Below, in pieces: positions 1 to 58,674 of a DNA stretch of 64,000 nucleotides. The translations under genes were made by a program, and so were the position numbers. Below the pieces are notes generated by a model. It did no database searches. It was not told where the DNA came from and saw only the letters and a list, made by a program, of their open reading frames with translations. Within the stretch, counting starts at the first letter, position 1; every line of letters begins with the position of its first letter. The DNA comes from Trichoplax sp. H2. Lineage: Eukaryota. Where the stretch lies: assembly GCA_003344405.1 (NCBI GenBank), contig NOWV01000149.1, positions 62,001-126,000 of the forward strand. Direction: 5' to 3'.

Positions 1-681
1 ATTTTTTGCAATGGTGGTTATGCTGAATATGTTATTATTCCAAGTTATAAATATCTTGCTAAGATTTCTGGTGTCGATTTCCATGCTGCCACATCGCTTG
101 CTTGCTCAGGTTTAACTGCCTATAATGCAATCAAGAAAGCGAATGTAAGATCTCCAGAATATTTGGTCATCATAGGTACTGGTGGGCTGGGTCTGATGGG
201 CATTCAATTGGCGAAAGCAACAACTCAAGCGAAAATCATTTGTGTTGATATCGATGATCAAAAATTAAATATAGCAAAGAATTTAGGCGCTGATTTTATT
301 GTTAACTCTAGCGATGGCAATGCAGTGCAGAAAATATACTCCATCTGTCCTAAAGGCGTCGATAGTGTAGTCGATTTTGTTAACGCCTCTCCGACGGCAA
401 AGATAGGATTATCCATACTTAAGAAGCGTGGGAATTTAGTGCTTGTAGGATTATTTGGTGGTTCTATCGAAATCTCTTTAGTGACAATACCACTAAAGAC
501 CTTAATTATTCAAGGCGCTTACACAGGTACTTATAGGGAAATGGTAGAGTTGCTACAATTGGCCAAAGAGGGGATCATTAATCCAATTATTTCGAAGCAG
601 TATTCTTTACAAGAGGCTAATACCGCATTAAATGACTTAAAACAGAGGAAGATTGTAGGGCGAGCAGTAATCATCCCATAA
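1..681 (+). CDS. adh: Zinc-dependent medium-chain alcohol dehydrogenase, 5'-truncated by the window edge, no intron in the visible part
   Basis: Frame 1 is open from base 1 (IFCNGGYAEYVIIPSYKYLAK...SLACSGLTAYNAIKK...IIGTGGLGLMGIQ...VDID...GRAVIIP*). It has the GGYAEY motif, the catalytic-Zn Cys in LACSGLT, the Rossmann GxGGLG and an acidic Asp typical of NAD preference. The ORF-track start at 163 is an internal TTG. Confidence 0.93.
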   Translation: MFCNGGYAEYVIIPSYKYLAKISGVDFHAATSLACSGLTAYNAIKKANVRSPEYLVIIGTGGLGLMGIQLAKATTQAKIICVDIDDQKLNIAKNLGADFIVNSSDGNAVQKIYSICPKGVDSVVDFVNASPTAKIGLSILKKRGNLVLVGLFGGSIEISLVTIPLKTLIIQGAYTGTYREMVELLQLAKEGIINPIISKQYSLQEANTALNDLKQRKIVGRAVIIP

Positions 682-2553
682 CGCTGTAACAAGTGACTTT
701 CTTTTACCAATTGGCTATTAATCGTTGATACTTTACTTCGTCTAAAACGTTTAGCAGAGGATGATTCTGGGCTGGATGATAATCATCTTGTACTGTCTGC
801 ATACGTAGAATTAATGATAGTGTTGCATAATGGAGTTGTCATATTATGCGGTATAAAGTCCATGTTCTCGTATTATCCTCCTCCTCCTTATATTAAGAAT
901 ATACGTAACTACTCTCTACTGGCGTTAGTAAGGTTGCCATTTAGATACTTCAATTTTCAGTGGATAATGATTTGGGTAGTTGGTAGATGACAAATTTTAA
1001 ACCATTTCCTAAGCTTAACTAGCACAAGCTAGGTGATTCATAAATTCATGATCACTAAATTACGGTACTACAATGCTTGGCTAAGCTACTATTGCTTATT
1101 GTTACCATGTCCTATCGAAGAAATTGAGCCATATTGAAAGCGTTCTTTTACTGACAGACAAGTTTATTATATTGTACATACATATACCCTTAAATCTTGC
1201 AATTGTAATAAATCAAAAATGGCAAATACCAGCATGATTATGGCATGGCAGGGATCACAGCAACAGCGAGATTATCCAATAATTATAATCTGTTCATTAT
1301 TTTTATATGTATTATTAGCTATCTTTGTCATTCTTAATTTGATTCGCTATCAATTATTGCATGCAAGAAATTTTATATGATTTCTATTTCCTAATTTGCT
1401 ACCACTAGATGATAGCAAAGCCACAACGCTATTTGTACATCCTTTTTCAATCCTAACAGTACTATGGATTCCATTTGAAGAACGGATTAATGCATACGTT
1501 GGTCTATTGCAGGATAAATTTTTATGTTGAACATATAATCTTGATATTTCTAAATTACTTATATCTGCTACAATAAATAATAATCGAACTCTGATATTAT
1601 TAAGTTAGTTTCTGTGTGATATATATAATTTACGAGATATTTCATGCCATGGACACGTACATGTAGAATCGAGTACAGACTTAAAGGCAGGATAAAAATA
1701 AATGAGTGGCAGTTACGGTAGAAGATGGAAGATTCCTTTATCCTACTCGTATAGTTAAATATTTCCGGTGAACAGTAAATGGATAAGAACTTACCTTTCT
1801 ATAGCTAGAATTAGCTGTAATTAGTTGTAAAATAATACGGTTATACTGTTGATACAACGACAATGCTGCTAAACATCACCAGCGTTTTATTAATTTCTGA
1901 TAGTCTTTCATATTGGTGTAACAGATCTGGCAAAATCATGTCTAATTTGTTGCAGCCAATTAGTTACAGGTAAGCACTGGTAAGATGTAACTATACACAA
2001 TTTTTAAAATTGCTGAAGGGTACATGATAACTTATGTTAACACGCTACACGTATGATCAAATCCAATCATGACATTAATGTGTTGTAATTGAAATGTGCA
2101 TACATAAACATTTACAGACCATAGCAATAGGAGGCAATCGTTAATTCACACTTTTTAATACCCAGAAATTGAAAATTTTGTAACATACAGTACAAAGGTT
2201 TCTGAGTGAATTCCCCTTATCAAAGGAGATTAAGTATTCGACATATTATGTATAGGTTTATTTATTTAGATATAATTTTTGTGATGATAAATTGAACTGT
2301 AATGTTAGATTGAATTAGAGTTGAGAATTGTGAAACAACCTCAGCAATACTATATTATGTAATTAATAATATCAAAACTCGAATACAATAAGGTATAGGT
2401 TATGTTAATTATTATCGCGATGACAGTATCCTACATTGATATTACGTTACAGTACGAGAATTTTATCACATACAGTACATCCATTTGAATTTGTGTGCAT
2501 CCTAAATAATACAAGTGCTTTCAGTGGTCAAGATATTACAGTAAATATTTCTT

Positions 2554-5500
2554 TCATTGAGGCAAGCTATCTTTCATGACTAATTCTACGTTCCATATCT
2601 GAAAAATAAAAAAAGAAAGGAAGATTAAAAGACCTTCTAAGTGGTTACTGCTTGTTACCGATTTCCCATACTTTAATTGATCTATCGTTACTGCAGGTAA
2701 CAAGCAAATGCTTGCCATGATGGTAATTCATGGAAGAAATGCCACATTTCGTGTCAAAAAATGTGGCTAACGTTTGCCGACTGAATTAAATAGACAAAAG
2801 CATTTCAAGTATTAAGAATACAGTTTACTAAAAATTATTGTGAGATATACAATAAAAGTATTATAAATATTCTAGCTTACTCTGCGTCAGTTATGGTTTC
2901 ATAACAATCGTTGCATACACGAACTGGAAATTCAAACCCTAGGGATGGCATTACAGACGTGTTTTCACTGCATTTGGCGCAGACTGCTATACCACATTTG
3001 CGACAATGATGCTACAAATATCATTAAAACTAGCAGTTAAATTTAAAGATTTACAACAAGCCGCTTCTGAGGCTCTATGTATTGCCATATTAATAGCAAA
3101 TGTTCAATCCGTAGGATCGCACTAGAATGCAGATATTGACAAATGTTCAAGATACCTGTCGAAATCCAATCTTTTTTTCACTCCACATTTGCTTGACATT
3201 CCAAAAAAATGGAACATCGCAACGCTGACATGAATCAGATTCAAGCCACTCTTTCGTCTTTAAGTAAGAATAAATGAAAACAAAACTGAATTGGTTGTGA
3301 ATGAGTGAATCGACAATCTTGAAATAGCGATATTATAATTTAAATTGATGGGCAGTACTATTGCTTTACATACCTCAGCTCTGTCTACATCCATTTTCCA
3401 TGTAACTATGAAGCCATCATCGGCAACTGAAATTAGCTTGCTTGCCTCGCGAACATAGTGGAGTGCCCGTATTTTATCGCTTTGGGTAATAGCAAGTGAT
3501 CCATTGTGAGAGTAAGTCCAGATGAGGAGAAGGCCATCAGTACAACATGTAATGAGAACGGTAATTTATGTAAGTCAATAAAGTGCTCTTTAAAACACCC
3601 AATGATGGCAGCTTTTTCTACGTTATGCTACAAACCCGTGTCCATGCAATTGGTAAACGGTGCCTTTTCTACCTCCGATATCCCAGACCAGAATAGTTCT
3701 GTCAAAGCTTCCTGAAAATAATAACTGTTTATCGGGATCCCAAGCTAAACAGCGAATACTACCTATAACCGAATAGGAAAAATACGTCGTATAATTCAGC
3801 TGCAATGCAGGCCATTTCATATTTCAAATAATATCATCAAGTATAATTTGTAATCCAGAAGTAAACAATAAGACTTTATTATTATTATCTTGTCTCAGAT
3901 ACCTGAATGGCCTTGTAACGTTGTGACGGGCACCAAACTGGAATTATTGTCTTTAACTCGTAACACAGCGATGCTGCCGCCATAATCACCAACAAAGATA
4001 TGCTTACTATCTTGATCAAATCTGTAATTTCAGTTAAGGCAAAATAGACTACGGCACGATCTCCATGTTATGCTTATTTTTAAAACTACGTAAACGTAAA
4101 ACATTATGGGATATCAGTTCAAGTTCTACCCAATACAGCCTATTGCAATAAATATCAACATTCTTGAACTCTATTTCTACGCCGAAAATTAAGTATCGGG
4201 AGAATACTTGGTGGAAATTCTATCACGGGCGCTATACATAAACTTCAACTAAAATGTCTAATTCTAAGTTAGCTATCTGTGGTAGATCTTTAGAACGTCA
4301 ACTTTAAAAAATAACTGCTATACAATTTATTATTGGATGGATACTCAAGAGCAATGCACCAAGCATTAGCCTGATAACCGCCTAAACGTCGACCAGTTTC
4401 ACAGCAATGCCACTGCATATATTTGTCTCGACTGACACTTAACAACCAATTTAAATTCGGACTGTAAATTATTCCATTAACACGTCCTGAGTGGGCTAAA
4501 GAGAATAAACGAAATATTCTTCATATTGTAATAGAGAGAGAGAGAGAGAGATGTCACAGCACTGTCCTAATTACACTTGTCCATTCGATATCTCTATGTA
4601 TGTTCAATTACAGTGGGCTAACCATCATAAATAAAATCAATTGACTTCATCGAGTATATGGCAATGTTATTCGCAACTTCTACAATTTACTCAATAATAT
4701 TAAGGACCGTGATATACATGGGGTAATTACTCTTTGCTCGTTAGCATATGGGATTGCAAGAAAGCAATGAAGAAATTCATCTTACCGGCATAATCACGCT
4801 TGTGAGTTATTTTGTTGAAATCTTCGGATAATTCAAATTCCTGTATGAATAGTGCAAATAAAAGGCGTCATTAACTGCACAATTACAAGCTATTAACTAG
4901 TACAACATTAGGATTAAAATTTACTGCGGAATGTCTCATTTTCCTTTAGCTAAAGTAAACGAGCGATTGATGGGATAAATCAGACCGTCAAACAATAGCA
5001 TAAAGCGGTTGCAACGGACATTTATTCCTCTATCCATTTCAGCAAGAAAGATACACATTTATGCTTTTGTTCATGATGGATGAACGTTTTCCACTATGCT
5101 GAGCAAATAGACTGTCATTCTAATTAATGTAGGTCTTGTTCAATTCGATCTGACTTTCTAATTAGTAAATTTTGCTGTTAATAATGCTCTAATGAAAAGT
5201 GGGCATGAGTTACTTCAATAGTAACTACAGACATCAAATGATGCATAAAATTGTATTCTTGTTCGTTTGCATAGCTCTATTTGTATGAGGGAATAATCCA
5301 TTCAAGTGACGATAGCATCATTAGCGAGCAATGAATTACAACATCGGCACTGAATGTTTTTGACATGATGTTTACTTTTCAGTCAGCGTAAGTTTACAGC
5401 ACTACAAAATGAAACTATTCATTCTTGTCAACTAAAAATCAACGGATCCATTTTTGTCATGATACGCTCACAAAATGTAGTTAGGGTTTTATGCATACGT

Positions 5501-7284
5501 GTATATACAGTCAGAATTTGAGTTCTAGGTTGATCTGATCCATCGGTTAGAATGGAGTACAGTTGGTGAAGATGATCAGTTAAGCTTTGAATACATCAAG
5601 GTTACCCTTTGTATTCAATTAATCTTACTTAGCGTTACTATTAATAAACATTTTTCATTATAATGGGGCTTGAACTAGTCCGTGATTGAAAATTGAGAGA
5701 AAAAGGTTGATTCAATTGAGCAAATCTTACCGAAATCAATCCGGTCTCGATGCCACAAAATAACTTTCTATCTTGACTGCTGAAATAGAGAGCGGTGACA
5801 GGAGCTAGATAAAAATAAGGAAAGCAAGATTGAGAATAATTTGATCAAGCTAAATCATTGGCTGTTGATAAGCTAAAAATGATCATGATAGGACTACTGT
5901 AGGGATGTAGCATTTCTAAAAGCAATCAATCTATATTTTTATTCCTTGGTAAGATAAAGTACGAGTATAAACAGAACCAATATTAAATTGGAAACTTTAT
6001 CCATAGCAAAACAAACGCCAGTAAGGCGGATAAAAAGAGTGATGGCGACGATAAGCCCTAAAGATAAGCAGAAAAATGTCGCTAATGATGCTACCTACCG
6101 CTCATGGTATGACAAATACTCGGCCAATATTGACCACTGTCTCGCTTGAGCCAAACCATGACATTGCTAGCAAGAATAAGAAAGATTGATTAACATGAAT
6201 ACTGTCAAATCATCGTTGGGAGAGACATTTTGTTGCGATAATACAATATCATCATCGTTGTCATCGCAGGTTTCGAAGAATACAAATCAAAATGAATTAA
6301 ATTTCCTTTCAATGGCTCTTTGCATTTTTGAACTGTATTCTCTCATCAAATCGATTCTACATTATCTACAGTCGATAGGAGAGTTCCACATGGACAATCG
6401 TTTGACTATCCCCATGGATTGTAAGTTGAAACTCGATAAGATGAGAAGGAAAGTGCAAGTGCAATGGAGGTTAATCTGTATCCGATAGGGCACTTCATGA
6501 TTGCAGTAGAGTAGTAGGAAAATGAAGACCAGTCTTAACATTAGTCTCTCTTTCTAGTCGATGTTGGTCTTGGTTGGAATATTTCTACTCTATCACCGCT
6601 ATTCCAACTACTTGGTATTTTCATGGTAGGAAATGAGATCCGTCTGGATGGATCTCGTATCTTGACCATGGTGGAGAATCCTGTATGGACTTATGCCGAG
6701 TAGAATACTATTGTACAACGAAATGGGATAGTAGAAACAAAAATGATGATGCTTCGTTCTATCCATAGAGTCGTTCAGGCCATTGACCGACATCTTACCA
6801 GTCTAAAATACTTTGACAAAGGTTGGAAATGCTATCTTGATGGAGATACTAGTCGTTTTGAGTCCAGCAATACTTCCATCAACAAGACAAAACTACTGGA
6901 TTACAGTAAGGCATAGAAAAATAGCCTTGGCATCACAACAGAATAGCAAGACGACACAATCGACACAAGAATTGTCGTTTGCGATTCCCCCCCCCCGCCC
7001 AAGTTAAATCACGATCACTCCAACTGCAGTCACTTAAACTGGGCGATGATGGATCCCTACTACTCCTCCTTAAAACGATTATCCAGTGGAACTATTCCTA
7101 CTCAGCATCGACCATTGCTGGCAGCCATGATTGAAAACATTGCCTACCGATCATCACTAGCGCTGATGACACCATCTTCTTCGGGTATAATAACTGCTGC
7201 ATTGAGGGTGCCGTTGATCCCTTCCAGTTTATTCAACAGTTCGGGATTATTCAAACGAATTCCATCAATGACTGCGGTAGCCAT
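2554..7284 (-). CDS. WDFY2: WD repeat and FYVE domain-containing protein (WDFY1/WDFY2 ortholog), 12 coding exons, ~407 aa
   Basis: Hand-spliced exons 7148-7284, 6099-6166, 5731-5804, 4786-4840, 4345-4495, 3903-4021, 3636-3762, 3374-3479, 3156-3257, 2881-3011, 2672-2780, 2554-2598. All introns are GT-AG and phase-consistent. The protein has [22 protein letters not shown] and the [39 protein letters not shown], all characteristic of WDFY1/2. Confidence 0.95.
4022..4344 (-). other. U12-type (minor spliceosome) GT-AG intron, intron 5 of WDFY1/2
   Basis: The 5' splice site reads GA|GTATCCATCC (U12 consensus GTATCCTT). The branch site CCTTAAC (4033-4039) lies about 11 nt before the 3' splice site, and there is no polypyrimidine tract (TTGCCTTAACTGAAATTACAG|). 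Confidence 0.8.
4533..4551 (+). repeat. (AG)n microsatellite in a WDFY intron
   Basis: agagagagagagagagaga read directly. Confidence 0.9.
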
Positions 7285-9644: not shown

Positions 9645-11416
9645 CTATTTTTGATTAATCTGAAATTCCGAAACAGACTTTAACATTTCCTCACTTACAA
9701 TAGGCTGAAATAACTTATCTCTTTTATTAAAAACATAACAAGTTGCATCTTTAATATCAAACCACAACGAGTATAGCTTTACGGTTCCGGCTGCAATTTT
9801 CTCCTTCATAAAGCTATAAGAATTGACGTGTAAAAGTTGCTGCAACGTATTAATCTGTTGGCAGTATTACAAGTAAATGATTCAATATCGAGAAAAAATC
9901 CACGATGCGACAAGCTCAAAGTATTGTGGATGAATGCAGCAGTCTATAAGTTATCGTAATTTTTAGTGCTTGATGTTCATTTTGCAGTAAATACGAGCAG
10001 AATGATCATAATATCCATTTCGAGTGTACCTGAGATAACTGGTCCTTTGGTAATAGGTTTTGGTTAATTTTAGCTTCGAATTTTAAACCGTTTTCATTAA
10101 ATTCTAAATGCAATGGTTGGTCGCTATTCGATCGATCAACGAGTGTCGTCTTTTCCCATTTAGTGTAAGTCTGACTAGCAAATCGATAGATCCAGTCTAA
10201 CACAAACGATGATTCACTAGGCGCAGTTCCGCCTAAAGAGTGCAATCCGTCCATCGCCTGCAATTACGAATTTATTAATTAGTTCTAATCGCTGATCATT
10301 TATATTGATCTTTCACAGGATAAGAGTGTAGCCAAGGCTCTCCAATCATCTAAAATCAACAGTCAATGTTTAATCATCCTATCATTTCGGTTACTGATAG
10401 TCAATTTTAATATTAAAATTATCGTCCTACAGCGCTTGCAAAGGATTGTTCTATTGCGTAGACGTTAACAGTAACAACATGATATTACCACAATCGATGT
10501 CATCGCTTAGCCTGATATGATTGGCGAAGTGAGTATCCCACTAGAAATGCATGAGGATACTAACCTTACAATCGGAGTGTCCACACACCACAACAGAGCT
10601 GACTTGATTGCGAACACAAGCTAGTTCTAAAGCAGCAGCCTCTGCTGGTGTCCAACGTTCGTATATAAGTTTAGAATGTGGAACAATATTGCCTGCATTT
10701 CTAACAATGAAACTTTCACCAGGCGCAATGGAAGCAATGTTGGATGGAAATACCCGACTGTCCATGCAGGTAATGAAAATGCAGCTTGGCTGTAAAGGCA
10801 GAGAAGATTGATAACCAATTAAAAAGTATCCGGTCTAAGTATCGATTGGAATGACAGTATAGGCATTACTGAAGTTGTAAGTAATTAGTATGGACTATCT
10901 TCTAGTGGTCCAAGGGTCAATAGTCATGATTATAGTACATTCTGCTAGCCCGGTTATCCACATGTTGTTCACTGTTCTGTACAGTATATTCCATCTTTTA
11001 ATTGAAGTAAGATACTGATGGGCACAAAATACCAAGTTTTGCAGAACTTTGGCTTGTAGCTCAACATGTCTACGGAATAGCATGGCACTAACACTGTTAC
11101 TTTACTGTATTGTTATCCCATTGAATTATCTGTTATAATTGAACTAAGTTCTGTGAGGTAGGTATGCTAATCCTGTTGATTGCATCAACTGGTGATCCTT
11201 GTACGCTGGCTAGAACAACTGCTCGATATGATCATTTCAACCACTGTACAAGTCGATTTGTCCACGTCAACGGAATCACTTGCCGTTGCAATTTATCCAG
11301 CAAAAGGGTATGCAACTTACCTGCACTTTTTCAGCTACCTGAGCATACAGAGTCTTATTGGCAGAACTTAAAGAGGCTGAATACCGTAAAACCCCACGAA
11401 TGACTTTCTCAATCAT
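9645..11416 (-). CDS. Beta-class carbonic anhydrase (metazoan type), 4 exons, ~252 aa
   Basis: Exons 11321-11416, 10565-10789, 10030-10257, 9645-9854, all phase 0 with GT-AG introns. Zn ligand motifs TCMDSRV (CxDxR) and CGHSDCKAM (HxxC), plus VRNAGN, QINTLQQL and LWFDI. The N-terminus MIEKVIRGVLRY resembles invertebrate beta-CAs. Confidence 0.95.
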
Positions 11417-11519
11417 CTTTGATACAGTATTTCCAACTGGCGTGGTAGTCCCTAGAATCTGTAGATGGAACTAACGTACAGTAAGCTTGCGAGATCGATC
11501 ATCGATCGGATTCGATTTT

Positions 11520-12775
11520 GCATCAAGTTTGTTCTCTAGTCAACATTGCAATGGTACCAGTACAGTGTACAGTACTGTACGTACAGTACAGTATTGTACA
11601 GTACAGTATGATGGTAACGATGGCAAAGTAGTGTACAGTACGGTACAATGTACAGTACGGTACAATGTACAGTACTGTACAGTACATCAAATACGATCTG
11701 CTCTACCGTACACGGTACAGTACAGTACTTCAGTGTCTTGTACTGTACACTGTACAGGGTGTACAGTACTGTACAGTACAATACAGTATAGTACTGTAAA
11801 CTGTAAGATACAGTACATGTACTGTACTGTACAGTATACTGTACACACGACGGTGGGCGTCAAAATACAGTACAGTACAGTACAGAACAGTAAAGTAGAC
11901 TCAGTACATACTGTACAGTACTGTACATACTGTACTGTATGATGGTAACGATGTTAAGGTACAAACAGTACAGTACAGTACTGTACACTGTACAGTACAG
12001 TACATCAAATACGATCTGCTCTACCGTACACTGTACTGTACAGCACAGTACTATAAACTGTAAGATACAGTACATGTACTGTATACACACGACGGTGGGC
12101 GTCAAAATACGGTACAAAACAGTACAGTAGACTCAGTACATACAGTAGTGTANNNNNNNNNNNNNNNNNNNNGCATCAAGTTTGTTCTCTAGTCAACATT
12201 GCAATGATACCAGTACAGTGTACAGTACTGTACGTACAGTATTGTACAGTACAGTATGATGGTAACGATGGCAAAGTACTGTAGTGTACAGTACGGTACA
12301 ATGTACAGTACTGTACAGTGTACAGTACATCAAATACGATCTGCTCTACCGTACACGGTACAGTACTGTACTGTAAACTGTAAGATACAGTACATGTACT
12401 GTATACACACGACGGTGGGCGTCAAAATACAGTACAGTACAGTACAGAACAGTAAAGTAGACTCAGTACATACTGTACAGTAGTGTACATACTGTATGAT
12501 GGTAACGATGTTAAGGTACAAACAGTACAGTACATCAAATACGATCTGCTCTACCGTACACTGTACTGTACAGCACAGTACTATAAACTGTAAGATACAG
12601 TACATGTACTGTATACACACGACGGTGGGCGTCAAAATACGGTACAAAACAGTACAGTAGACTCAGTACATACAGTAGTGTACTGTATGATGGTAACGAT
12701 GGTAAGGTACAAACAGTACTGTATACTGTACAGTACAAACGACGGTGGGCATCAAAATACTGTACGGTACAGTTG
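11520..12775. repeat. Complex TACAG/CTGTA satellite array with conserved islands, spanning a 20-N gap
   Basis: Islands ATGATGGTAACGATG (11609, 11939, 12256, 12496, 12687), CATCAAATACGATCTGCTCTACCGTACAC, ACGACGGTGGGCGTCAAAATAC and GTAGACTCAGTACATAC are separated by variable TACAG/GTACT runs. Confidence 0.93.
12153..12172. other. Assembly gap (20 N)
   Basis: Run of n in the sequence. Confidence 1.
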
Positions 12776-13170
12776 ACTAAGCGCATAGTGTGATATGTAC
12801 TGTAGCCATCAGAAAGGGTACTTGTACCCGATGTAGCTTCCCATACGTGAGTCCAGTCTCAGTCAAAGCGAGACACGTCTTCCGTCATCATGGCAACCGC
12901 CATCCAATCTTTCTGACTACTCGACTTCCACGACTATCGTCGCAAACCAATAGTTGGCTGCAAGCCGTTATTTTCGAAACGAGAAATCAAGGTGGCGAGT
13001 AAAGTAGTCGAAGCTTGACCAGTCTCAAAATAATCGTTTCATATTCTTGGTGTACACTTGCACGATCAGTCTACAACTTTCCTCCAGTCTTAGTGATTAG
13101 TTGTTGTTGAATTATTCCCTTATTTGGACGATATTACTATCATCGAATAACAAGCATCATTCAATGTGCA

Positions 13171-29484: not shown

Positions 29485-31673
29485 TCATACTGTAGTTAAA
29501 GCCATTGCAGGTTCTTTATTTGGAGGATAAGATTGTAATGGCGATATAAGTGGATATAGTCTATCTTCTAAACCAGCCTTTGGAGTCAATTTATTATCTT
29601 GATTTTTAGCAACTAATTGCTGGCCATTACCATTGCTACTAGTACGCGGACCACCGTTGCTACGTTTTGAATATCTAGATGCCCTCGATGTCTTAGTATA
29701 AGTTGCTTGCAAACTTAAACGCAACGATGCACGACGCCGTCTCCTACTAATTCCTAGTAAATTCCATAAACCTCGCCTCATTTCGGAGTTCATAAAATTA
29801 TAAGCGATCGGATTAATGGCGCAATGAGTGAAACTAATTAGAATAGCTATGGAACTAAAAAATCTTAAACCTTCCCTACTAGGATGGTAGGGATCGTCAT
29901 CAAAATAGTTTATAATGAGGACAACGAAAAATGGAGTCCAAGTAAGATAAAATGTACCAATAATGAATACGAAAATAAGAAGTAATTTAAAATCTTTTGA
30001 TGTAATCGGTCTTTTAATATCAGCAGCTCGACTTAATTGACGGTGAAGGCTATTTTGTTGTTTAATTTTTTGTATATGGCCACAAGCCGTTTTAAATACT
30101 ATAGAATAAAGAACTGATAGCAGCAATGCTGGTAGAAAGATATTGACAATAACTAAGACCAGAAAATAGATTTTCTCTCGTGTATGGGTAATAACATGAC
30201 CGCACACATTGATATCCACTTGAGTATAATCATGCCATATTACCATGGGTAATAGTGATAGGATAATCGGTTGCATCCAGATATAAACACTGGCAAGTAT
30301 AAATAATAAAGTAAAGTTAAGCCTGTGCTGAAGAAATGGATAACAAATTGCAATATAGCGATCAATACTAATTGCACAGAAGTTTAAAATGGAAACCATG
30401 ACTAAACCAATACCACATGCATTATAAATGGCGCACCAAAATGGCGCAAATGGCCAATAGCCAAGCAATGCTTGTATCACCATGCCTAAAATCACTATTA
30501 AGGCAAACAAAAGATCGGCAATACTTTGACTGATCATGAAATAATTGGTTGTTGTGCGTAAAAAACGGTTACATAATATAGTAGCAATCACTATTACATT
30601 GCAAACCACGCTGATAATTACTACAGCTAAGCTGAATCCAATAACTATCCATTCACTTGGATTTAAAGGTAGAGCTTCATCAGTGTCATTAGGCTTGGCT
30701 GTATAACCATCATGTCCCGATGATGTTACATTTTTTATTTGATAAGTCAAATTCCATAAGCTAAATGAAATAGATTAGAAAAAGAATCTGTTAGTTTTCC
30801 CTTATTAATACGAATTAGTCAATGAAATTTTCTTTTATTTTTGATGTGATTTGCATATTTTTTAACGATCTTAACTAAGCAACAATTTATGTAAAAGTAT
30901 AATGATACTAAAGTTATTACACGAGTAAATTACGATCTATTAATTTAGATATCTTTTAATCAAAATTTATTAGGGGAAGGATAGAGCCTACACTTTAATG
31001 GCGATATGCATTTTAGTAAAGTAATTACCCTCTATGAGACATTACATTAAAGTTAAGATTTCTAGAAATAAGTATTTGATGTTGAAAGACATCAAATTCT
31101 ATTAGTTTAATATTATCAAATTTAAACAAAATTTTTAAAGAAATTTTGGTAATAATTGCCATAGCAGTTACATATGAAACTTAAAGCCTGATAAATTAAA
31201 ATTTGATTCCTTCTGTCTACTTTTAGTAATATTCTGTATAATTAAGCACATCTACACTACATAGCTTGAGCAAACATAAACATAAGTTAATCGATATTTT
31301 GGTAATAAAATCAACTAGCTTAATTTTGAGTTAGAATTGTTGATTTAGGTCGATTACATCGCTACAGTTACCGATATTTTTAAATTGGTACCTTTGTTTG
31401 CGATTTCAGTGAATAGGAAAACCTTATACCTACTATTAACTTTAGATTTTATAAATCAAATTACTAGTTTAGATCAAAAACAGAAACAATTGTAGTCATA
31501 AGGTTTCTGTGTCAGGTTAAATGGATTAGTTTGGTGCTTCATAAGGGTGTACTGTAACGTTTGGGATAGTAAACACTAGTTAAGCATCATTGAAGATTTG
31601 AATAAAGTCTTGGAACAAAAGCTATATAATAGATAGTGCAGTAAATATATTACCTCAGAACATTCAAATGCAT
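29485..31673 (-). CDS. Rhodopsin-class (class A) GPCR, biogenic-amine-receptor-like; main exon 29485-30760 plus probable start exon 31654-31673
   Basis: Seven hydrophobic segments, TTNYFMISQSIADL, GYWPF..WC, ISIDRY, TWTPFF and NPIAY. The ORF has no in-frame ATG before TM2. The acceptor at 30761 joins in phase with ATGCATTTGAATGTTCTGAG|gtaata (31673-31654), giving MHLNVLSLWNLTYQ. The 5' end is less certain than the 7TM exon. Confidence 0.88.
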
Positions 31674-46300: not shown

Positions 46301-47063
46301 TCTTTATGTTATTTAAAAGTTTCTCTTGCATTTAAAATCTGTCGTGGGAGGTATGCTTTATGTACGTCTAATATCATACCTTTTGTTCATTCAAACTAGA
46401 AAATACCTCTGTCGTCATATGTAAAAGAAGGAATTTACCTTTAACTTGCACTATCAATCCATTGGCATTAATGTAAACTAGCGAAAGAGAACTAAATCCG
46501 GAATTATCGTCGCTATTTCACCACAGTATTTTCTTCGAATGAAAACATTTCATACATTTTCTATGAATCTGTTGGAAATATAGCCAACTTTTTCATGTAA
46601 AACTGTTAATTGCATATACAGTCGACATTTAATTAACAAGAACAAATTTAACCTGTTTTTTCTTTTCGATTTGGGAATCATCTTAATTTAGCTCCCTTTG
46701 TAGAAGAATTTTCAAGGTAGTAATCTTACAGGAACAGACTTGGCACTAGTAATTTTTGCAGTGTAACTCAGATTTATTGAGGCTTACGAAATGAATACTT
46801 AAATTTTCAAAACGCACAGAGAAGTTTTTAAATTTATCATTTGATAGAAATTTTGGTAGTTTACGAAATATCTTATTTCTAGGCGCATACAACTATTTTG
46901 GAATACTTTTCATCTAGCTATACCACTAAAACATTGTCAAACCTGCTGCTCCATGCAGTCATATTTCGTCATCGTTTATTACTAGCTGATATATCTCAAA
47001 GTTTTTCCTTGCTCAAATTTATTATAATTATCAATCGATTCATTATACTCACTTACTAAAATA

Positions 47064-48344
47064 ATGCGGGCCAAGGAAAGCAGTCGATTTTTATTGATTA
47101 TCTATATTCATATATTATTCTTCTCAATTAAGTCTATGGCGATAGAATTTGGAGATATAAGAGTTGAAGCAAAAGGTTTTCCCCCACTTAGTGGCAACCA
47201 TGTGGCTGGAAATCAAGTGTCGAATATAAATAGTCGCTATGGTCAAGAAATAGACTTTAAGACGGTTTATATCTTTACAGTATTCATCACCGGAATTATC
47301 TGCAATGCCATCGTTATTGCTACTATTGCTTATAATCGCCAACTTCATTCTGTAACTAATTATTTTATTGTCAGTCAATGTTGCGCTGATTTCTTATTTG
47401 CGGCTTTAGTTTTACCTGCATACTGTCTGCAAGGTTTATTAGGCTATTGGCCATTTATGCCAGAGTGGTGCGCTATCCATACTTGCTTATCAATTAGTTT
47501 AGTAATGACATCATTACTCAATTTATTTGCAATAAGTCTTGATCGATATTTGGCCATATGTCGGCCTTATCAATATCACACTTGGATGACTACACGTTTC
47601 GTGATTGGAATGCTACTATATATTTGGTTTCAGCCGCTTCTGCTAGCCTTGATTCCAGTATTTGGTTGGAGAGGTGTTCAATCAACTATTGGCAGTCATT
47701 GCGTTGTCGATTTATTTCTATACATAAAACAAGAGAGAATTTATTTGTTAATTATTACATTAATTAACTTTTATATCCCAGCAACAATAATGTTTACTTT
47801 ATATATCCTGATATTTAAAGTTGCTATCCGCCATATTCATAATATTGAACAACAAAGGAATGTTCAAAGAAAGCAACATTATTTTGGATCTATTCAAGAT
47901 CAACTTAATCATCGTTATTTGCGCTTAGCTAAAAACGATTTTCGATTAATACTTGTCTTTGTAATTGTGAATGGCGCATTTTATTTATGTTGGACGCCAT
48001 TTATGACATTTGGCTTAATAAGCTTATTCCATTTAGGACCTGTAACTGATAACTTAGGAATTGCTTGTAGTCTAATGGCGTTTACAAATTGTACACTCAA
48101 TCCGATCATACATAATTTTTTTAATCGAGAAATTCGAAGCGGATTTTTCAGGATGGTTTGCTTCCATACAAGACGCAAGCTTATCAATAGGAGCAACACG
48201 CATATATCTGGCACTCAATGTTCGTCTACTCATGGGAGTACATTTGTTATACGTCACGATCTTATTTCTGCTAAGGATAAAGCGATTATCGAGCAACTGG
48301 TTAACGTGAGCAGGATGAAAGCAAAGAAAGTGACTTATATTTGA
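47064..48344 (+). CDS. Rhodopsin-class (class A) GPCR, paralog of the receptor at 29485, single coding exon (true start may be ATG 47136)
   Basis: 7TM, VTNYFIVSQCCADFL, GYWPFMPEWC, ISLDRY, CWTPF and NPIIH. An acceptor-like TTCTTCTCAATTAAG just before ATG 47136 suggests the first 24 codons may be intronic. Confidence 0.92.
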   Translation: MRAKESSRFLLIIYIHILFFSIKSMAIEFGDIRVEAKGFPPLSGNHVAGNQVSNINSRYGQEIDFKTVYIFTVFITGIICNAIVIATIAYNRQLHSVTNYFIVSQCCADFLFAALVLPAYCLQGLLGYWPFMPEWCAIHTCLSISLVMTSLLNLFAISLDRYLAICRPYQYHTWMTTRFVIGMLLYIWFQPLLLALIPVFGWRGVQSTIGSHCVVDLFLYIKQERIYLLIITLINFYIPATIMFTLYILIFKVAIRHIHNIEQQRNVQRKQHYFGSIQDQLNHRYLRLAKNDFRLILVFVIVNGAFYLCWTPFMTFGLISLFHLGPVTDNLGIACSLMAFTNCTLNPIIHNFFNREIRSGFFRMVCFHTRRKLINRSNTHISGTQCSSTHGSTFVIRHDLISAKDKAIIEQLVNVSRMKAKKVTYI

Positions 48345-51140: not shown

Positions 51141-52118
51141 CGCTAGAAGCAAAGTTTGTTACTGTTACATTACGATCGGGACGCGAAATGATGACACCCC
51201 TCGTCCTGTCTTTCTGTCCTTCCATTTGGTAATGTTGGCTATACACTGCGGTACTGTATATGATGCAAATATCTGTCGGCAGAGTACAAACCAGCAAGAC
51301 TGGATGACGAGGAGTGACATCTTTTCGGGTCCAGATCGTAGGTTACCGAATAACGCTTCTAGCGAATTGACAGTTTTTAAACACAATTGTACTACTGTAG
51401 ATGGATTTATTACATGTAATGCCGTAGGTTAGAGTCAGGATGGTACCGTATAAATAGCCTAAACACAGTAGAAAGAACGCGTCTATTTTTTTTTAGCGTT
51501 GCCTTGAGGGTATATCTGACTATGTCTGACTATGACATCACGGCAATTCGTACAGTACGCATGAACGCTTCAACCAGTTCCTACAGCGCATTCATGAGGT
51601 AGAAAAATAGCCAATGGTATACAAGCTCGTTGTTTATATTGGTCATCCGGATCGGTGACAGATGTACAGACGTACCGATCTCCATCAGCACCAACGACGG
51701 TAATGTAGTAACAAGATAAAACATACAGCACGTTACAACCAATCACAGGGGCTTGTAAATCGAGCTTTGAGAGTGGTCGCTGCACCAGAAGCCACTAGCA
51801 ACTTTGCTTGGCAGCTTTTTACACTTTGTTGTTGTCCTGTTTATGGCTGGAATAGATCAATTTTAAATTGGATAAATTCATCATTACGATTCATTTGCAA
51901 CATTGAAACTTACTGTGAAGACTTTCATTCAGTTGAATCCACTTTTGTGTATCATTATAGGCTATCTAGTAGCAGGTTAAAGAATCCCCTTAACTGTAAT
52001 TACAAAGTAATTACAGTTGGAAAGAGCTGCAGATATCAGGTAGCGTGTCTTTGCAACACCGTGACAAGTTGACTAGGCTGCTTCTCGTTTTTCACTCTTG
52101 AAGAAATTATTGCTTACA

Positions 52119-52700
52119 ATGGCGGAACCAAGTCGATGTGCATGGTCTAGTCATGGCAATGCACTATGCAATGACTATCATGATACCGAGTGGGGTGTAC
52201 CTGTACATGATGATGCTAAATTATTTGAAATGCTCATCTTAGAAGGTGCTCAAGCTGGCCTCAATTGGAATACGATCTTGAGAAAACGTGATGGATACCG
52301 TCGTGCTTTTCACAAATTTAATGTTAAAAAAGTAGCTGCCATGAAGGATAAGCAGTTAGAATCGCTATTACACAATCCAGATATTATTCGTAATCGATTA
52401 AAAGTCTATTCTGTACGTAAAAACGCAAAGGCGTTTATAGCTATCCAAAATGAGTTTGGTTCTTTTGACAGTTATGTCTGGCAATTTGTTGACGGCAAGC
52501 CTATTATAGGAAATCGAAAAAAAATCCAAGATTTGCAGTCAAAGTCCGATATCAGTGATGCTATTTCCAAAGATTTGAAAAAGCGTGGCATGAGCTTTGT
52601 TGGTTCAACCATCATGTATGCTTTTATGCAAGCTGTAGGGCTAGTGAACGATCACACTACCAATTGCTTTCGATATCGTCAATTAGTGAATAAAAAATAA
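52119..52700 (+). CDS. tag: DNA-3-methyladenine glycosylase I (bacterial Tag type), intronless CDS, 193 aa
   Basis: RCAW, YHDTEWGVP, LFEMLILEGAQAGLNWNTILRKR, IIRNRLK, SKDLKKRGMSFVGSTIMYAFMQAVGLVNDHTTNCF. The Zn ligands (Cys/His ... HxxxC) and the base-recognition Glu are retained. The first ATG is at 52119. Confidence 0.95.
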   Translation: MAEPSRCAWSSHGNALCNDYHDTEWGVPVHDDAKLFEMLILEGAQAGLNWNTILRKRDGYRRAFHKFNVKKVAAMKDKQLESLLHNPDIIRNRLKVYSVRKNAKAFIAIQNEFGSFDSYVWQFVDGKPIIGNRKKIQDLQSKSDISDAISKDLKKRGMSFVGSTIMYAFMQAVGLVNDHTTNCFRYRQLVNKK

Positions 52701-55001: not shown

Positions 55002-57740
55002 TTATGAAAGAATTTCGGCAACTTGGTCAACAGTGTTGATTGAATGTATTTTATTGTTAGGAGATTGGTGTTCCTTCTGAGTTTCATTGCAGCCAATATT
55101 AGTGGTGGGTTCCTGTGTATTCGTAGATTTTTCTCGAATACCTCCTTTAGCAAAAGTAAAATGAGAAATATTTTTAGTGGCTTGTGCCCTTGTATTTAAA
55201 TGGGGTCGAAAAAATATAATATACAACTTGGGAAGAAATAAGAAAATCATAGGAGCTGCCCCTAATAAGAGGGTATTTGTTATGCTTAACGCAATAGTAG
55301 CGACGCCTGAGGTAAAGGAATCAACCATAAACGTGGCAATCGCAATTATACTAACAGCAAGTGTAGACATGAAAATATATTTTGACTCATTAAAATTTTC
55401 AGGAAGAGAGCGCGTTTTATAAGCTAGATATAAACAAGTTGAGACAATGACTATGCTCCAACAGACTAAGTTAATATGTCCATAAAAATATTGAATATTA
55501 CAATCAATGACAGTTTGATTCCCATCTCGATATTTTAATAGAGGAAAGGGTAGGATGATTATAAAGGCAGTCAAGATTCCATTAGAAAGGAATAGAAAAA
55601 CCAAGATGAAAGCTACTTGGCAGTAAGTCTTGGTATATTGCTTCCTTCTACTGCTCATGTTTGTTACGTTCTGAAATATATTCTTGACTTGATTTGTTTT
55701 ACATAATATAGTGGTGTATATTCCGATGCAACTCGTAGTAACAAGATAATTCTTGACAGCACATACTTCAGGAGTGGCAGGCAATAAATGGAGGACAGAT
55801 ACTAGTACCAGTAAAGCAAGGAAGGCTAATAGTAGATTTATTAATATGAAATTGGAGCCCTTAACTATAGGTGTCTGTCTTTTTGCGATCATAATGGTCC
55901 AAATAAATATTAATAATAGCAAGTATAAACCTATTGCAACATAACATATTATTGAAATTGGACTAGTATATGATAGCTTTAAAATTGATAAATCAGCGCA
56001 ATATGTTCTATTTATGTCTGGATTAGTTAGAATTGGGCATTTAGTACAAGTAGATTGATTTGTTGTATTAGAAATAGTCCTATTTTGACATAAACGACAT
56101 GACCAGCAGCATGATCGATGTTGCAACTTTATTCGTCTATCTTGATACATATAATATCCTGGAAGACAGTCTTGCGAGCATCGTGACAGGGGTTTATTAT
56201 TCCCAAATAGATGATGATTCCACACAATACTTTCTTCATTAAGAATTAGACCTTCGTTTTGATTCCAATAACCAATATCAACGGGTTCAAATCTTGACGT
56301 ATTTGAATTCATCGATGATTGCAAATTAACAATATTAAAGGATATCTGACTGTTGCCATTAGGTGCAAACCGAAAAGAACGACTTGAGATACCATCAAAA
56401 CGAATCTTACTTAAAATATTATTAAATTGCTGATTATTAAACGATTTTTCAGATATTGATGGGCAATAAGTTTCGTTACAGCCTAGATATTTATGTAGAG
56501 CATGAGCTAATGCTAATGTAGCATCCATAACGAAAGCTGAAATTGGACTTATTTTATAAAATGCTTGAAAATATCGAATTCTAGTCTTATTAAATGTACA
56601 ACTCGGTATTTTAGCATCTATGCTAATTATTTCTTGTAAGGCTTGTCTAAACCAGATGTTATCTAAATTATTACATAAATTAAGGCGATCCAGATAGAGA
56701 TTAAACGCTTGCATAGTAACAGAATTGAAGGAAATGCCGATTACCCCATTAAGGATACTTGATCTAATAGAATAGATTGACGGAGATATCAACCAGTGAT
56801 AGGAACCGATCCAAGTTTTACCTGTTAGCTGATGGATATCAGCTTGTTGAAAGAATCGATAGATGATTAATTCATTACCTAGTAGAACAACTACTTCTGA
56901 TTTAGTTTGATTCTTTAATTTTAAAATAATTTTAGTAATGGAAGACAAAGTATAGTTCTGATCAATCATCAATATCTCATCATAACATATGCCGTGATTT
57001 TGGGGTAGTCGGTTAATATCTTGAATAATATTTTCACTTATGGTATTTCCAGCAATGACAATTGATATCCAATTCCAGTTAAAATAAGTTATAATCTCTT
57101 TAATGGCATACCAATATAGATCATCCGGTACAGAAGTAGAATAAAAGTAAGGAAATTGTTGCTGATCGGTTAAAGACTGATTGAAAAAATAGCTAACTTG
57201 AGTAAAGTGATTTTTGCTTGTATACGATGCCGTTTTAACGGTTATATTGTATAATTTGGCACCAATAACACCAAATATAGGGGAAGAATTAGCCGAAATA
57301 TTGTAAATTGGTTCTGGTAGACTAGATGGAGCGTTATTCGTATTATTGATTTTTGTATGGCTTTGCCCTGTATTCGAAAGTTTTTGATTGGATAAAACAC
57401 TGCTGAGTAATTCCATAGTTTGGTTGATAGATGAAGAAGAATCTAGAAGTGTCCAACCAACTTGAATATTGGGTAGCAAAGCTGGGTTATGATTGATTAA
57501 TTCCTCAATAGTATAAATCATAGCTTGAGTAAGTTGGATATTTTCCGGGTTAAAATACCGAGATAAATTGGACGATTGGTTCTTGTAATCTACTGTGTTA
57601 GGAAAAATACCCACTAACTGCACTTGACCTGGTTTAAAAGTACTGGATTGTGAATTACATAGTTGGAAGTAGCTATGAAAAACAAAATTGGAAAACCACA
57701 ATAGAAATAAGGAGCAAAACGATTTAATATGGTTCTTCAT
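55002..57740 (-). CDS. Class C GPCR (CaSR/mGluR/taste-receptor-like), intronless, 912 aa
   Basis: Signal peptide, Venus-flytrap region (LLPNIQVG, YFNWNWISIV, TWIGS..W), cysteine-rich domain (CSQDCLPG..CCWSCRLC..CTKCP..C), and 7TM with TPIVKGSN, KTRSLPENFNESKYI and FLPKLYIIFFRP. Confidence 0.95.
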   Translation of the reverse strand: MKNHIKSFCSLFLLWFSNFVFHSYFQLCNSQSSTFKPGQVQLVGIFPNTVDYKNQSSNLSRYFNPENIQLTQAMIYTIEELINHNPALLPNIQVGWTLLDSSSSINQTMELLSSVLSNQKLSNTGQSHTKINNTNNAPSSLPEPIYNISANSSPIFGVIGAKLYNITVKTASYTSKNHFTQVSYFFNQSLTDQQQFPYFYSTSVPDDLYWYAIKEIITYFNWNWISIVIAGNTISENIIQDINRLPQNHGICYDEILMIDQNYTLSSITKIILKLKNQTKSEVVVLLGNELIIYRFFQQADIHQLTGKTWIGSYHWLISPSIYSIRSSILNGVIGISFNSVTMQAFNLYLDRLNLCNNLDNIWFRQALQEIISIDAKIPSCTFNKTRIRYFQAFYKISPISAFVMDATLALAHALHKYLGCNETYCPSISEKSFNNQQFNNILSKIRFDGISSRSFRFAPNGNSQISFNIVNLQSSMNSNTSRFEPVDIGYWNQNEGLILNEESIVWNHHLFGNNKPLSRCSQDCLPGYYMYQDRRIKLQHRSCCWSCRLCQNRTISNTTNQSTCTKCPILTNPDINRTYCADLSILKLSYTSPISIICYVAIGLYLLLLIFIWTIMIAKRQTPIVKGSNFILINLLLAFLALLVLVSVLHLLPATPEVCAVKNYLVTTSCIGIYTTILCKTNQVKNIFQNVTNMSSRRKQYTKTYCQVAFILVFLFLSNGILTAFIIILPFPLLKYRDGNQTVIDCNIQYFYGHINLVCWSIVIVSTCLYLAYKTRSLPENFNESKYIFMSTLAVSIIAIATFMVDSFTSGVATIALSITNTLLLGAAPMIFLFLPKLYIIFFRPHLNTRAQATKNISHFTFAKGGIREKSTNTQEPTTNIGCNETQKEHQSPNNKIHSINTVDQVAEILS

Positions 57741-58674
57741 TTTATCGATAATTGGTCAAATAACTGAATGGAAAATTGACTCGATAATTAATCATTGCTC
57801 CTCATGTATTTACATTTACTGAGGCACTAATACTTCTAGATCAACTACTGGACTCGTTTAATGGTTTATATAGAATTCATTCAAGGCCATTTATATTGCT
57901 TAAGCTATAGAACATATTATTCATACCCAGATTCCTTTATTTATATAACTGTTAAGATTAATTAGCTAACTGCTTTCATTGTTTCAAAAAAATAATAACA
58001 TTACCGTTTACGTAAGCGAAATTTTCTTATTCACGTGATGCAATAAAATCTATCATTATTCGAATAGAAAATTGTTTCCTGCTTAAATTTCTTTGTTTTG
58101 GTGATCATAAATTTGTTTTTAATTGAATTGCATAATGTGTTAGAGCTATTTATAAGTTTGAGAAATTGTAAATATTTAACGCTAGAGACCGGATTCGATA
58201 ATAAAAAATAGTTGGCCATCCTATGCTGGATTTAATTAATACGCTTGACTATCCTGGAAGTTTGAAACATAATTTAATGAGTTATAAATCTACAAGTCAA
58301 TTGAATTGCAGTTGCTTCATCTGCCTTTTCCTTAAATTTGGCTATCAACAGTAGAAAGTCATTTAAGCCGATCTGTTTATTGTATAAAGGGCTAAACATT
58401 GGCCAGATGTATACAATACTAATGGAATAGACTAAATATAACTAACTAAATGAACGTAATTTATTTCTGACTGCATTTGTTAACAAATAAATTGCATTGA
58501 TTTCAGATAAACATCTAATAACTGTGACAGATGATAAAATGGCAATTTATTAAAATTTATTCTTTTAACAATCGAATCAATGTTAATAGGAAAATAAGTA
58601 AGTAATTCACATTATGGGGATACAGCTAACTTATTTCATGAAATAAAATCACAAAATCACTTGGGAGTCAAAGT

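Follow-up and report, generated by a model that had tools for sequence, protein, structure and literature searches.

The alcohol dehydrogenase gene at the left edge of the window

We analysed a 64,000-nucleotide stretch of the genome of the placozoan Trichoplax sp. H2 (contig NOWV01000149.1, positions 62,001 to 126,000 of the forward strand; hereafter the window, with positions counted from its first nucleotide), which opens inside a gene for a zinc-dependent alcohol dehydrogenase (ADH) lying tail to tail with a gene for a WD40-FYVE (WDFY-type) protein. A sequence-only reading of the window, made without database searches, had proposed that the ADH gene was acquired horizontally from a marine ammonia-oxidising archaeon. 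The features of the ADH gene and its 3' flank are listed here.

Positions 1 to 681, plus strand: 3' part of the ADH gene, codons 125-350 plus stop; the gene is read as an intronless ORF of 350 codons for a Zn-dependent ADH of the medium-chain dehydrogenase/reductase (MDR) type, of archaeal (Nitrosopumilaceae) origin
Positions 103 to 105, plus strand: TGC codon for the Cys (residue 159 of the full-length protein P0121) aligned with Cys154 of Sulfolobus-type ADH, from the alignment to structure 2eer
Positions 175 to 192, plus strand: GTGGLG, a glycine-rich motif for dinucleotide binding in the Rossmann fold, with its counterpart in 2eer at the aligned positions
Positions 247 to 249, plus strand: GAT codon for the Asp that closes the second Rossmann strand (CVD) and that matches the VD of NAD-dependent 2eer in the alignment
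Positions 682 to 1151, plus strand: probable 3' untranslated region (UTR) or 3' flank of ADH, in one RNA contig shared with ADH and unlike the archaeal neighbour genes

Frame 1 of the plus strand, open at its 5' end, runs from the first base without interruption until the TAA stop at 679-681 and encodes 226 amino acids (aa), as the sequence-only reading had stated for its uninterrupted coding sequence of 681 nt, and at 33-38% GC an open frame of 226 codons is far beyond chance. The window thus holds the 3' two thirds of the gene, with the first 372 nt to the left of it. Every peptide string that the earlier reading had quoted is present in the translation, and its description of the gene as similarly AT-rich agrees with a GC content of 0.385 for ADH and 0.325 for the window. 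The part encoded in the window matched Pfam ADH_zinc_N (PF00107, E=3.8e-26), while the full protein P0121 matched ADH_N (PF08240, 2.3e-27) and ADH_zinc_N (6.3e-26), so that a GroES-like catalytic domain precedes the Rossmann-fold cofactor domain, in the order of the MDR-type zinc ADHs.

The protein is already in public databases as a predicted protein, in two versions. P0121 (NCBI, nr and eukprot) is a 350 aa model on a 187,851-bp contig, whereas P0001 is a 338 aa model of the same ADH on a 2,399,976-bp contig, identical to P0121 apart from 11 residues which P0001 lacks. Archaeal homologues have sequence at the same place, and the ADH gene would therefore be an uninterrupted ORF of 350 codons, the 'intron' of P0001 probably being a spurious mini-intron and an annotation artefact of the 2.4-Mb scaffold. 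P0121 is colinear with the archaeal proteins, with no intron.

Relatives of the ADH in ammonia-oxidising archaea

Database searches returned 4,301 significant matches, and the best 119 non-self matches were 70-74% identical over the part encoded in the window and mostly 350 aa long. Organism names were attached to five of these 119, being Nitrosarchaeum, Nitrosopumilus (three times) and one metagenome-assembled genome (MAG) labelled 'Desulfobacterales', and the full-length identity to Nitrosopumilaceae ADHs was 64-68%, bearing out the Nitrosopumilus-like (Thaumarchaeota) resemblance which the sequence-only reading had pointed to. In an exhaustive search of 50%-identity representatives, full-length proteins beyond this group fell to 48% and 42% identity. 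A scan of GTDB with one genome per species gave 11 loci, nine of which, with identities of 54-66%, belong to Nitrosopumilus, Nitrosopumilaceae or unplaced Nitrososphaerota; the other two are bacterial, at 24-25%. In the ESM Atlas, the three feature clusters closest to the protein were commonest in Nitrososphaerota and contained no animal, and no other animal or eukaryote was found among the 119 best matches.

The Nitrosopumilaceae ADHs, which are annotated as 'alcohol dehydrogenase' or 'propanol-preferring alcohol dehydrogenase', have the same length of 350 aa and the same order of ADH_N and ADH_zinc_N domains as the animal protein. The gene is near-core in this family, being found in 286/301 genomes at E<=1e-60 (279/294 without seven unpublished genomes, which were not used as tree rows and bear on no other result), with a top identity of 68% among the 150 family-genome matches listed. 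At the two archaeal loci examined it is flanked by ScpA/ScpB on one side and by a CxxCxxCC protein on the other, which are housekeeping neighbours and gave no clue to function. Because it is near-universal and has the same housekeeping neighbours, ADH is an old, near-core and vertically inherited gene of the Nitrosopumilaceae.

Phylogenetic position and direction of transfer

Three trees were built: a quick maximum likelihood (ML) tree of 83 rows, a careful IQ-TREE analysis of 50 rows (LG+C20+F+G4 with posterior mean site frequencies (PMSF), ultrafast bootstrap and the Shimodaira-Hasegawa-like approximate likelihood ratio test (SH-aLRT)), and a FastTree of 115 of the 119 close matches, from which four sequences shorter than 300 aa had been dropped. 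Left out of the trees were one locus from an unpublished genome (L041), the two bacterial loci at 24-25% (L010 and L011), distant paralogues (L016-L019), loci representing the same places as others (L012 and L014, the same as L001 and L002, and L015, the same as L009) and fragments shorter than 300 aa (L069, L070 and L077); the careful tree was also made without nine outgroup rows that were very long and 24 near-duplicates.

All three trees placed the placozoan ADH within the radiation of the Nitrosopumilaceae. The careful tree had it in a 45-row clade with a support of 98/95, with family genomes G237, G008 and G013 outside this clade, and an approximately unbiased (AU) test rejected the topology in which the 42 archaeal-genome rows form a clade without the animal ADH (delta lnL 22.05, p=0.0018). 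The rows nearest to the animal ADH by path length were those of genomes G042, G017, G083 and G100. A placozoan orthologue hidden among the close matches was also considered, and none was found on the animal's stem in the FastTree of 115. Because the animal ADH is nested within a family in which the gene is near-universal, the direction was from archaeon to animal, and with the archaeal ancestry thus demonstrated, the horizontal acquisition from an ammonia-oxidising archaeon put forward in the sequence-only reading was upheld.

The same reading had named grouping with a broad eukaryotic clade as the outcome that would speak against transfer. No such clade was recovered, and the only eukaryotic relative seen was an ADH from Balamuthia mandrillaris (P0129/P0279, with P0129 representing the 50% cluster), which shares the polytomy within the 45-row clade and has a branch length of 2.38. 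The presence of the two in one clade, together with an AU test which does not reject their pairing (p=0.365), could be explained by an old gene that placozoans and Balamuthia received from one eukaryotic ancestor and that was lost elsewhere. However, the Balamuthia protein is 45% identical to the placozoan ADH and 44-45% to the archaeal ADHs, compared with 66-68% between placozoan and archaeal proteins, and because it is equally far from both there is no extra affinity and no sign of a shared eukaryotic history. Both sequences are on long branches (2.38 and 0.57 substitutions per site), where the AU test has little power, the best matches and nearest Atlas clusters are as described above, and even a placozoan-Balamuthia pair would remain nested in the archaeal family, which makes common eukaryotic descent a very improbable explanation. 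The Balamuthia ADH itself could stem from an old acquisition of its own, or its placement could be an artefact of the long branch.

An indirect route, via a bacterium, virus or protist that had first taken the gene from an archaeon, was also weighed. The 'Desulfobacterales' label of one relative (P0095) and the related gene in Balamuthia could point in this direction, and the long stem of the animal ADH could hide an unsampled intermediate. Nevertheless, none of the trees had a bacterial or viral clade separating the animal from the archaea, and the only two bacterial loci of the GTDB scan were at the distant identities given above. P0095 was placed deep inside a tight Nitrosopumilus subclade, which is the pattern expected from mis-binning, and this protein is most likely from a mis-binned archaeal contig. 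An intermediate carrier therefore seems improbable to us.

Integration into the animal genome

The features to the right of the ADH gene which bear on its integration are given below; they are taken from the comparison of four sequencing runs with positions 1-6000 of the window.

Positions 1152 to 1982, no strand assigned: spacer that separates the convergent transcripts; its RNA cover is nil or nearly so, each of the three DNA runs contains it, and its GC is 0.31
Positions 1983 to 2598, minus strand: terminal exon of the WD40-FYVE (WDFY-type) gene, whose stop codon occupies 2554-2556, followed by a 3' UTR of about 570 nt, from RNA joints and the ORF at 2554 to 2718
Positions 2672 to 6000, minus strand: further WDFY exons at 2672-2780, 2881-3011 (FYVE), 3156-~3261, ~3340-3479, 3636-3759, 3900-4021, 4345-4493, 4786-4839 and from 5730 onwards

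The RNA joints define eight introns in this gene, seven of them with CT..AC ends (GT..AG on the minus strand), and an extra intron at about 3262-3340 was deduced from the frame and is not among the RNA joints listed. Because the gene has WD40 matches and a FYVE zinc finger (PF01363, 5.6e-13), the WDFY label given to it in the sequence-only reading is right, as are its spliced nature and convergent orientation; of the 12 exons which that reading had counted, at least 10 were seen within positions 1-6000 (nine from joints and the one deduced from the frame), with the 5' end farther out.

Separately assembled DNA runs from three studies each contain a contig that spans ADH and reaches into the WDFY exons, with 0.5-0.9% differences from the window: X3 (25,480 bp, covering window positions 1-3808 plus 21.7 kb beyond the left end), X12 (7,224 bp, positions 1-2586) and X5 (3,125 bp, positions 161-3284). 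Their mean depths of 31.6, 28.2 and 19, respectively, are those of the adjoining host contigs. Positions 1-4600 are contained in 20 public runs, which come from seven studies and bear two organism labels, and the assembly has no N before position 12,153. With regard to the archaeal gene neighbourhood, ScpA/ScpB and the CxxCxxCC protein are missing around the animal ADH, and tblastx and blastn searches of positions 682-3300 against 74 archaeal loci gave no matches, whereas the ADH control matched 73/74; as judged from this comparison, the foreign DNA is the ORF only. Among the database records, a rhodopsin-type receptor of the window (29485-30771) is 99% identical to TRIADDRAFT_59551 [Trichoplax adhaerens], whose contig of 2,399,976 bp has the length of that of P0001. 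The protein of an intronless glycosylase gene of the window (Tag, described below) is on a contig of 187,851 bp, the length of that of P0121, suggesting that Tag and ADH are linked in a second assembly too.

Contamination, or a chimera in which the assembler joined the ADH of an archaeon living with the cultured animals to host sequence, deserves attention in this organism. Nitrosopumilaceae are common in marine aquaria and biofilms, the ADH gene has no intron and a composition near that of AT-rich Nitrosopumilus, and much prokaryotic DNA was present in the Trichoplax project according to the accessible part of Driscoll et al. (PMC3641634). The three bridging contigs, each joining ADH to spliced WDFY exons at host depth and one of them continuing 21.7 kb further left, speak against this, as do the lack of an archaeal neighbour gene or an assembly gap at 682-3300. 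Moreover, the closest sampled archaeon is only 74% identical despite dense sampling of the family, and the same gene is present in the second record. The sequence-only reading had taken a lack of reads linking ADH to WDFY as evidence against its proposal; such a link is present in contigs of all three runs, demonstrating that ADH is physically integrated in an animal chromosome, and contamination or misassembly is extremely improbable.

Constraint and host-like composition

Amino acid divergence of the animal ADH from the nearest archaeal genes is about 32-34% and nucleotide divergence about 28-31%, with no stop or frameshift in 350 codons. The animal protein has kept 71/74 columns which are invariant in 41 archaeal orthologues, and 135/149 columns which are at least 90% conserved; the three changed invariant columns correspond to residues 47, 55 and 60, in or beside the loop which the P0001 model removes. 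It has 24 residues that are found in none of the 41 archaeal rows, compared with 4-7 in short-branch controls and 17 and 46 in long-branch controls.

As for composition, the GC content at third codon positions (GC3) of ADH is 0.33, which compares with 0.26-0.36 in five neighbouring host genes and 0.14-0.95 in sixteen archaeal ADHs. At codon positions 1 and 2 the GC content is 0.41, lower than in 15/16 of the archaeal ADHs, and the relative synonymous codon usage (RSCU) of the gene correlates at 0.73 with host genes versus 0.61 with archaeal ADHs. Among the variants listed, which give partial counts and are only suggestive, one was in ADH (369 A>T, synonymous) versus six in 682-1500. The intact ORF, the kept columns and the host-like composition point to long residence under purifying selection, of which the gene thus bears the signs.

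Probable transcription of the ADH gene

RNA run X19 contains a 1,344-nt contig covering window positions 1-1151, i.e. the ADH part of the window and 470 nt of its flank, at a depth of 9.8. The RNA depth is 0 at 1201-1600 and 1.1 at 1601-1800, where the DNA runs have depths of 19-32, and the introns of the neighbouring WDFY gene are spliced out in the same run. Such a silent spacer and spliced neighbour argue for transcription rather than DNA carry-over, and ADH is apparently transcribed. As evidence we used no RNA-free part apart from the spacer, and no RNA depth ratios. The AATAAA signal was found at 1207, 1572 and 1697 only, and not just upstream of the end of the RNA contig at 1151, although contigs cannot show RNA ends. 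X19 also has contigs running through the WDFY introns at 3992-4374 and 4812-5550, with depths of 4-10, versus 35-142 for spliced WDFY contigs, and this intron-spanning RNA is due to either intron retention, pre-mRNA or some DNA in the library.

One could argue that the gene is integrated and non-functional, with its foreign ORF of no use to the animal and transcribed incidentally or as noise. It lacks introns and any eukaryotic signal that we could see, its RNA depth of 9.8 compares with 135 for the neighbour, no AATAAA stands ahead of the point where the RNA contig ends (that at 1207 is nearest), and its terminal branch is long. On the other hand, 350 codons have stayed intact in AT-rich DNA despite the divergence, the protein retains 71 of the 74 invariant columns along with all catalytic residues, and the composition is host-like, making a non-functional gene unlikely.

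Catalytic features and likely enzyme type

The closest solved structures are the Sulfolobus-type NAD-dependent ADHs 2eer (E 3.8e-85) and 1jvb (E 1.5e-83), in agreement with the Sulfolobus-type resemblance noted in the sequence-only reading. The animal ADH aligns end to end with the enzymes of Saccharolobus solfataricus (1jvb/1r37) and Sulfurisphaera tokodaii (2eer), and it has the same catalytic Cys/His-Glu/Cys residues as they do, as well as the NAD motif and the Asp. The zinc ligand columns kept relative to 2eer are the Cys in GVCHSD, the His-Glu in GHE and the Cys in ACSG, the last of these being aligned with Cys154, which we take to be a catalytic-zinc ligand; the assignment of ADH positions as zinc ligands follows the Sulfolobus ADH structures. 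The structural lobe has four Cys in P0121 (C103, C106, C109 and C117, aligned to 2eer), whereas the Sulfolobus enzymes have Glu98 at the first structural-zinc position. Identity to the Sulfolobus-type enzymes is clearly below that to the Nitrosopumilaceae group, and the relatives of the animal ADH are mesophilic.

The Asp encoded at 247-249 occupies the position at the end of the second Rossmann strand that binds the adenosine ribose in NAD-dependent MDRs, which predicts a preference for NAD(H) rather than NADP(H). The Atlas model of the ADH has a predicted local distance difference test (pLDDT) score of 0.93, and a template modelling (TM) score of 0.98 to a Nitrososphaerota AdhP cluster. From these comparisons the ADH most likely works like the Sulfolobus-type NAD-dependent ADHs, and its product would be an active NAD(H)-dependent alcohol/aldehyde (or ketone) oxidoreductase, with hydride transfer to NAD+ at a catalytic zinc bound by Cys/His/Cys (+Glu), and a Cys4 structural zinc lobe alongside. 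In the animal it might serve in the turnover of alcohols and aldehydes from microbial and algal food, which is a guess.

The best-scoring NCBIfam model for both the animal ADH and its archaeal orthologue is bacterial AdhP (NF006940), yet both are below its equivalog cut-off, with 214.9 bits for P0121 and 218.9 for archaeal P0009 versus a cut-off of 344. The Thermoproteota acryloyl-CoA reductase model NF041172 was rejected in the same way, at 153.1 bits versus a cut-off of 500. The animal class III ADH or S-(hydroxymethyl)glutathione dehydrogenase model TIGR02818 gave 58 bits with the part encoded in the window versus a cut-off of 544, and was absent among the NCBIfam matches of full-length P0121 at E<=1e-30; the gene thus does not belong to the class I/III ADHs of animals, whose signatures the sequence-only reading had described as different. 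The archaeal orthologue falls outside these models too. A part in the archaeal 3-hydroxypropionate/4-hydroxybutyrate (3HP/4HB) cycle was likewise set aside: no zinc ADH of this type is assigned to the cycle in the accessible part of PMC8287830, and the score for the acryloyl-CoA reductase model was as low as given above.

Probable transfer from archaeon to animal and possible donors

We consider it likely, and with good confidence, that this is a real transfer from Nitrosopumilaceae to placozoans, and that the gene is integrated, under constraint and probably expressed. One gene only, for a zinc-dependent, NAD-type ADH, would have passed from an ammonia-oxidising Nitrosopumilaceae archaeon to the nuclear genome of placozoans, in the lineage that led to Trichoplax, with the bare ORF alone kept, without introns and tail to tail with the WDFY gene. 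It would then have drifted to a host-like composition while staying under purifying selection and being transcribed.

Several observations weigh against this interpretation or limit its detail. The 45-row clade contains a polytomy at the place of the animal ADH, whose grouping with G042, G017, G100 and G083 reaches no more than 85-88 SH-aLRT in the quick trees and is lost in the careful one. The animal ADH has a terminal branch of 0.57 substitutions per site versus a median of 0.13, and the pairing with Balamuthia is not rejected. No orthologue from another placozoan genus was seen, although other placozoan genera were not searched directly. The runs may descend from a few laboratory clones, and are independent as sequencing and assembly but not as wild populations, while the variant counts are partial as stated. 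The sole RNA run is random-primed, non-poly(A) and 'metatranscriptomic', and consists of contigs from which strand, ends and level cannot be read; its intron-retaining WDFY contigs are about 10 deep, like the ADH contig, indicating that the library holds a certain amount of pre-mRNA or carried-over DNA. Both the 5' end of ADH and its promoter are outside the window, and neither the animal ADH nor its archaeal orthologue reaches an NCBIfam equivalog cut-off.

Prokaryote-to-animal horizontal gene transfer (HGT) counts among the known kinds of event; here the archaeal donor is unusual and the evidence unusually complete. To our knowledge there are very few well-documented gene transfers from Archaea to animals. 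No published report of an archaeal ADH in placozoans was found in full-text searches of the literature, although supplementary gene tables might list it, and this transfer is not reported in the accessible parts of PMC13342648, PMC13350694, PMC6005172 and PMC12855814. The published Trichoplax screen looked for bacterial sequences only, and in the accessible part of its text 'alcohol dehydrogenase' occurs 0 times and 'archaea' once (PMC3641634). The transfers it describes are, like the ADH, intronless prokaryote-type genes on large eukaryotic scaffolds, but in the part of that paper available all 12 candidates are bacterial (including dapF, murA, BPL_N, rsmE, PhrB, GNAT and MhpC), whereas the ADH is archaeal (Driscoll et al. 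2013, PMC3641634). A screen of Mnemiopsis found no transfers from Archaea, as far as the accessible part of that paper goes (PMC6005172).

By strict HGT criteria the case is better supported than most, as it combines nesting at the level of a family and a topology test with independent linkage, constraint and RNA cover. The host is an early-branching animal, among the simplest, which feeds on microbial films, and the enzyme is simple and assayable, so that one can ask to what use the animal puts a gene that is near-core in ammonia-oxidising archaea.

With regard to the donor, which the sequence-only reading took to be marine, the four relatives bearing a Nitrosopumilaceae name are Nitrosopumilus or Nitrosarchaeum, but three of the four tree-nearest archaeal ADHs (L020, L023 and L027, from genomes G042, G100 and G083) are in loci of 47-56% GC with a GC3 of 0.56-0.67, compared with about 32% GC for marine Nitrosopumilus loci. 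High GC is typical of sponge-symbiont thaumarchaea. The donor might on this basis have been an animal-associated ammonia-oxidising archaeon and not a free-living planktonic Nitrosopumilus, which is a doubtful suggestion at present. If true, the ADH would be the molecular relic of an association that early placozoans had with archaea, later put to use in the external-digestion or detoxification chemistry of the animal.

Other genes and sequences in the window

The rest of the window contains an F-box gene, an exon of a major facilitator superfamily (MFS) transporter, an exon of a beta-carbonic anhydrase and WD40 exons. There are also G protein-coupled receptor (GPCR) ORFs at 29485-30774 (minus strand), 47028-48344 (plus strand), 55002-57755 (minus strand) and 60830-61821 (minus strand). 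Two of these are single-exon, rhodopsin-type ORFs, with matches of 38% to another Trichoplax receptor and 64% to a Logan contig, and the more distant matches of the ORF at 29485-30771 are animal aminergic receptors. One is a single-exon class C GPCR with ANF_receptor, NCD3G and 7tm_3 domains, and there are fragments that may be those of a second one. Positions 11400-12900 consist of tandem or low-complexity repeats that are open in several frames on both strands, with translations like 'YSTVQYCTV', and the run of N at 12153-12172 amid these repeats is the only assembly gap in the window.

Two further genes are of prokaryote type. The carbonic anhydrase exon, at 10541-10834 on the minus strand, is of the beta class (Pro_CA, 6.4e-21); beta-carbonic anhydrase genes have reportedly been proposed, in one paper, to have entered protozoans, insects and nematodes by HGT. 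The second is the Tag gene.

Positions 52077 to 52700, plus strand: Tag, intronless prokaryote-type DNA-3-methyladenine glycosylase I (PF03352, 7.9e-79), about 51 kb to the right of ADH

Tag is not among the 12 Trichoplax candidates for lateral gene transfer (LGT) in the accessible part of the published screen (PMC3641634). The presence of ADH and the intronless Tag at this distance suggests that HGT in placozoans is under-surveyed. After its own protein, the best matches of Tag are Logan/ENA contigs at 61-75%, and its named matches are bacterial at 63-68%, including Paludibacter, Anaerolineaceae, Rickettsiaceae, Babeliaceae and others; the Logan match at 75% could be either the orthologue of another placozoan or a bacterium.

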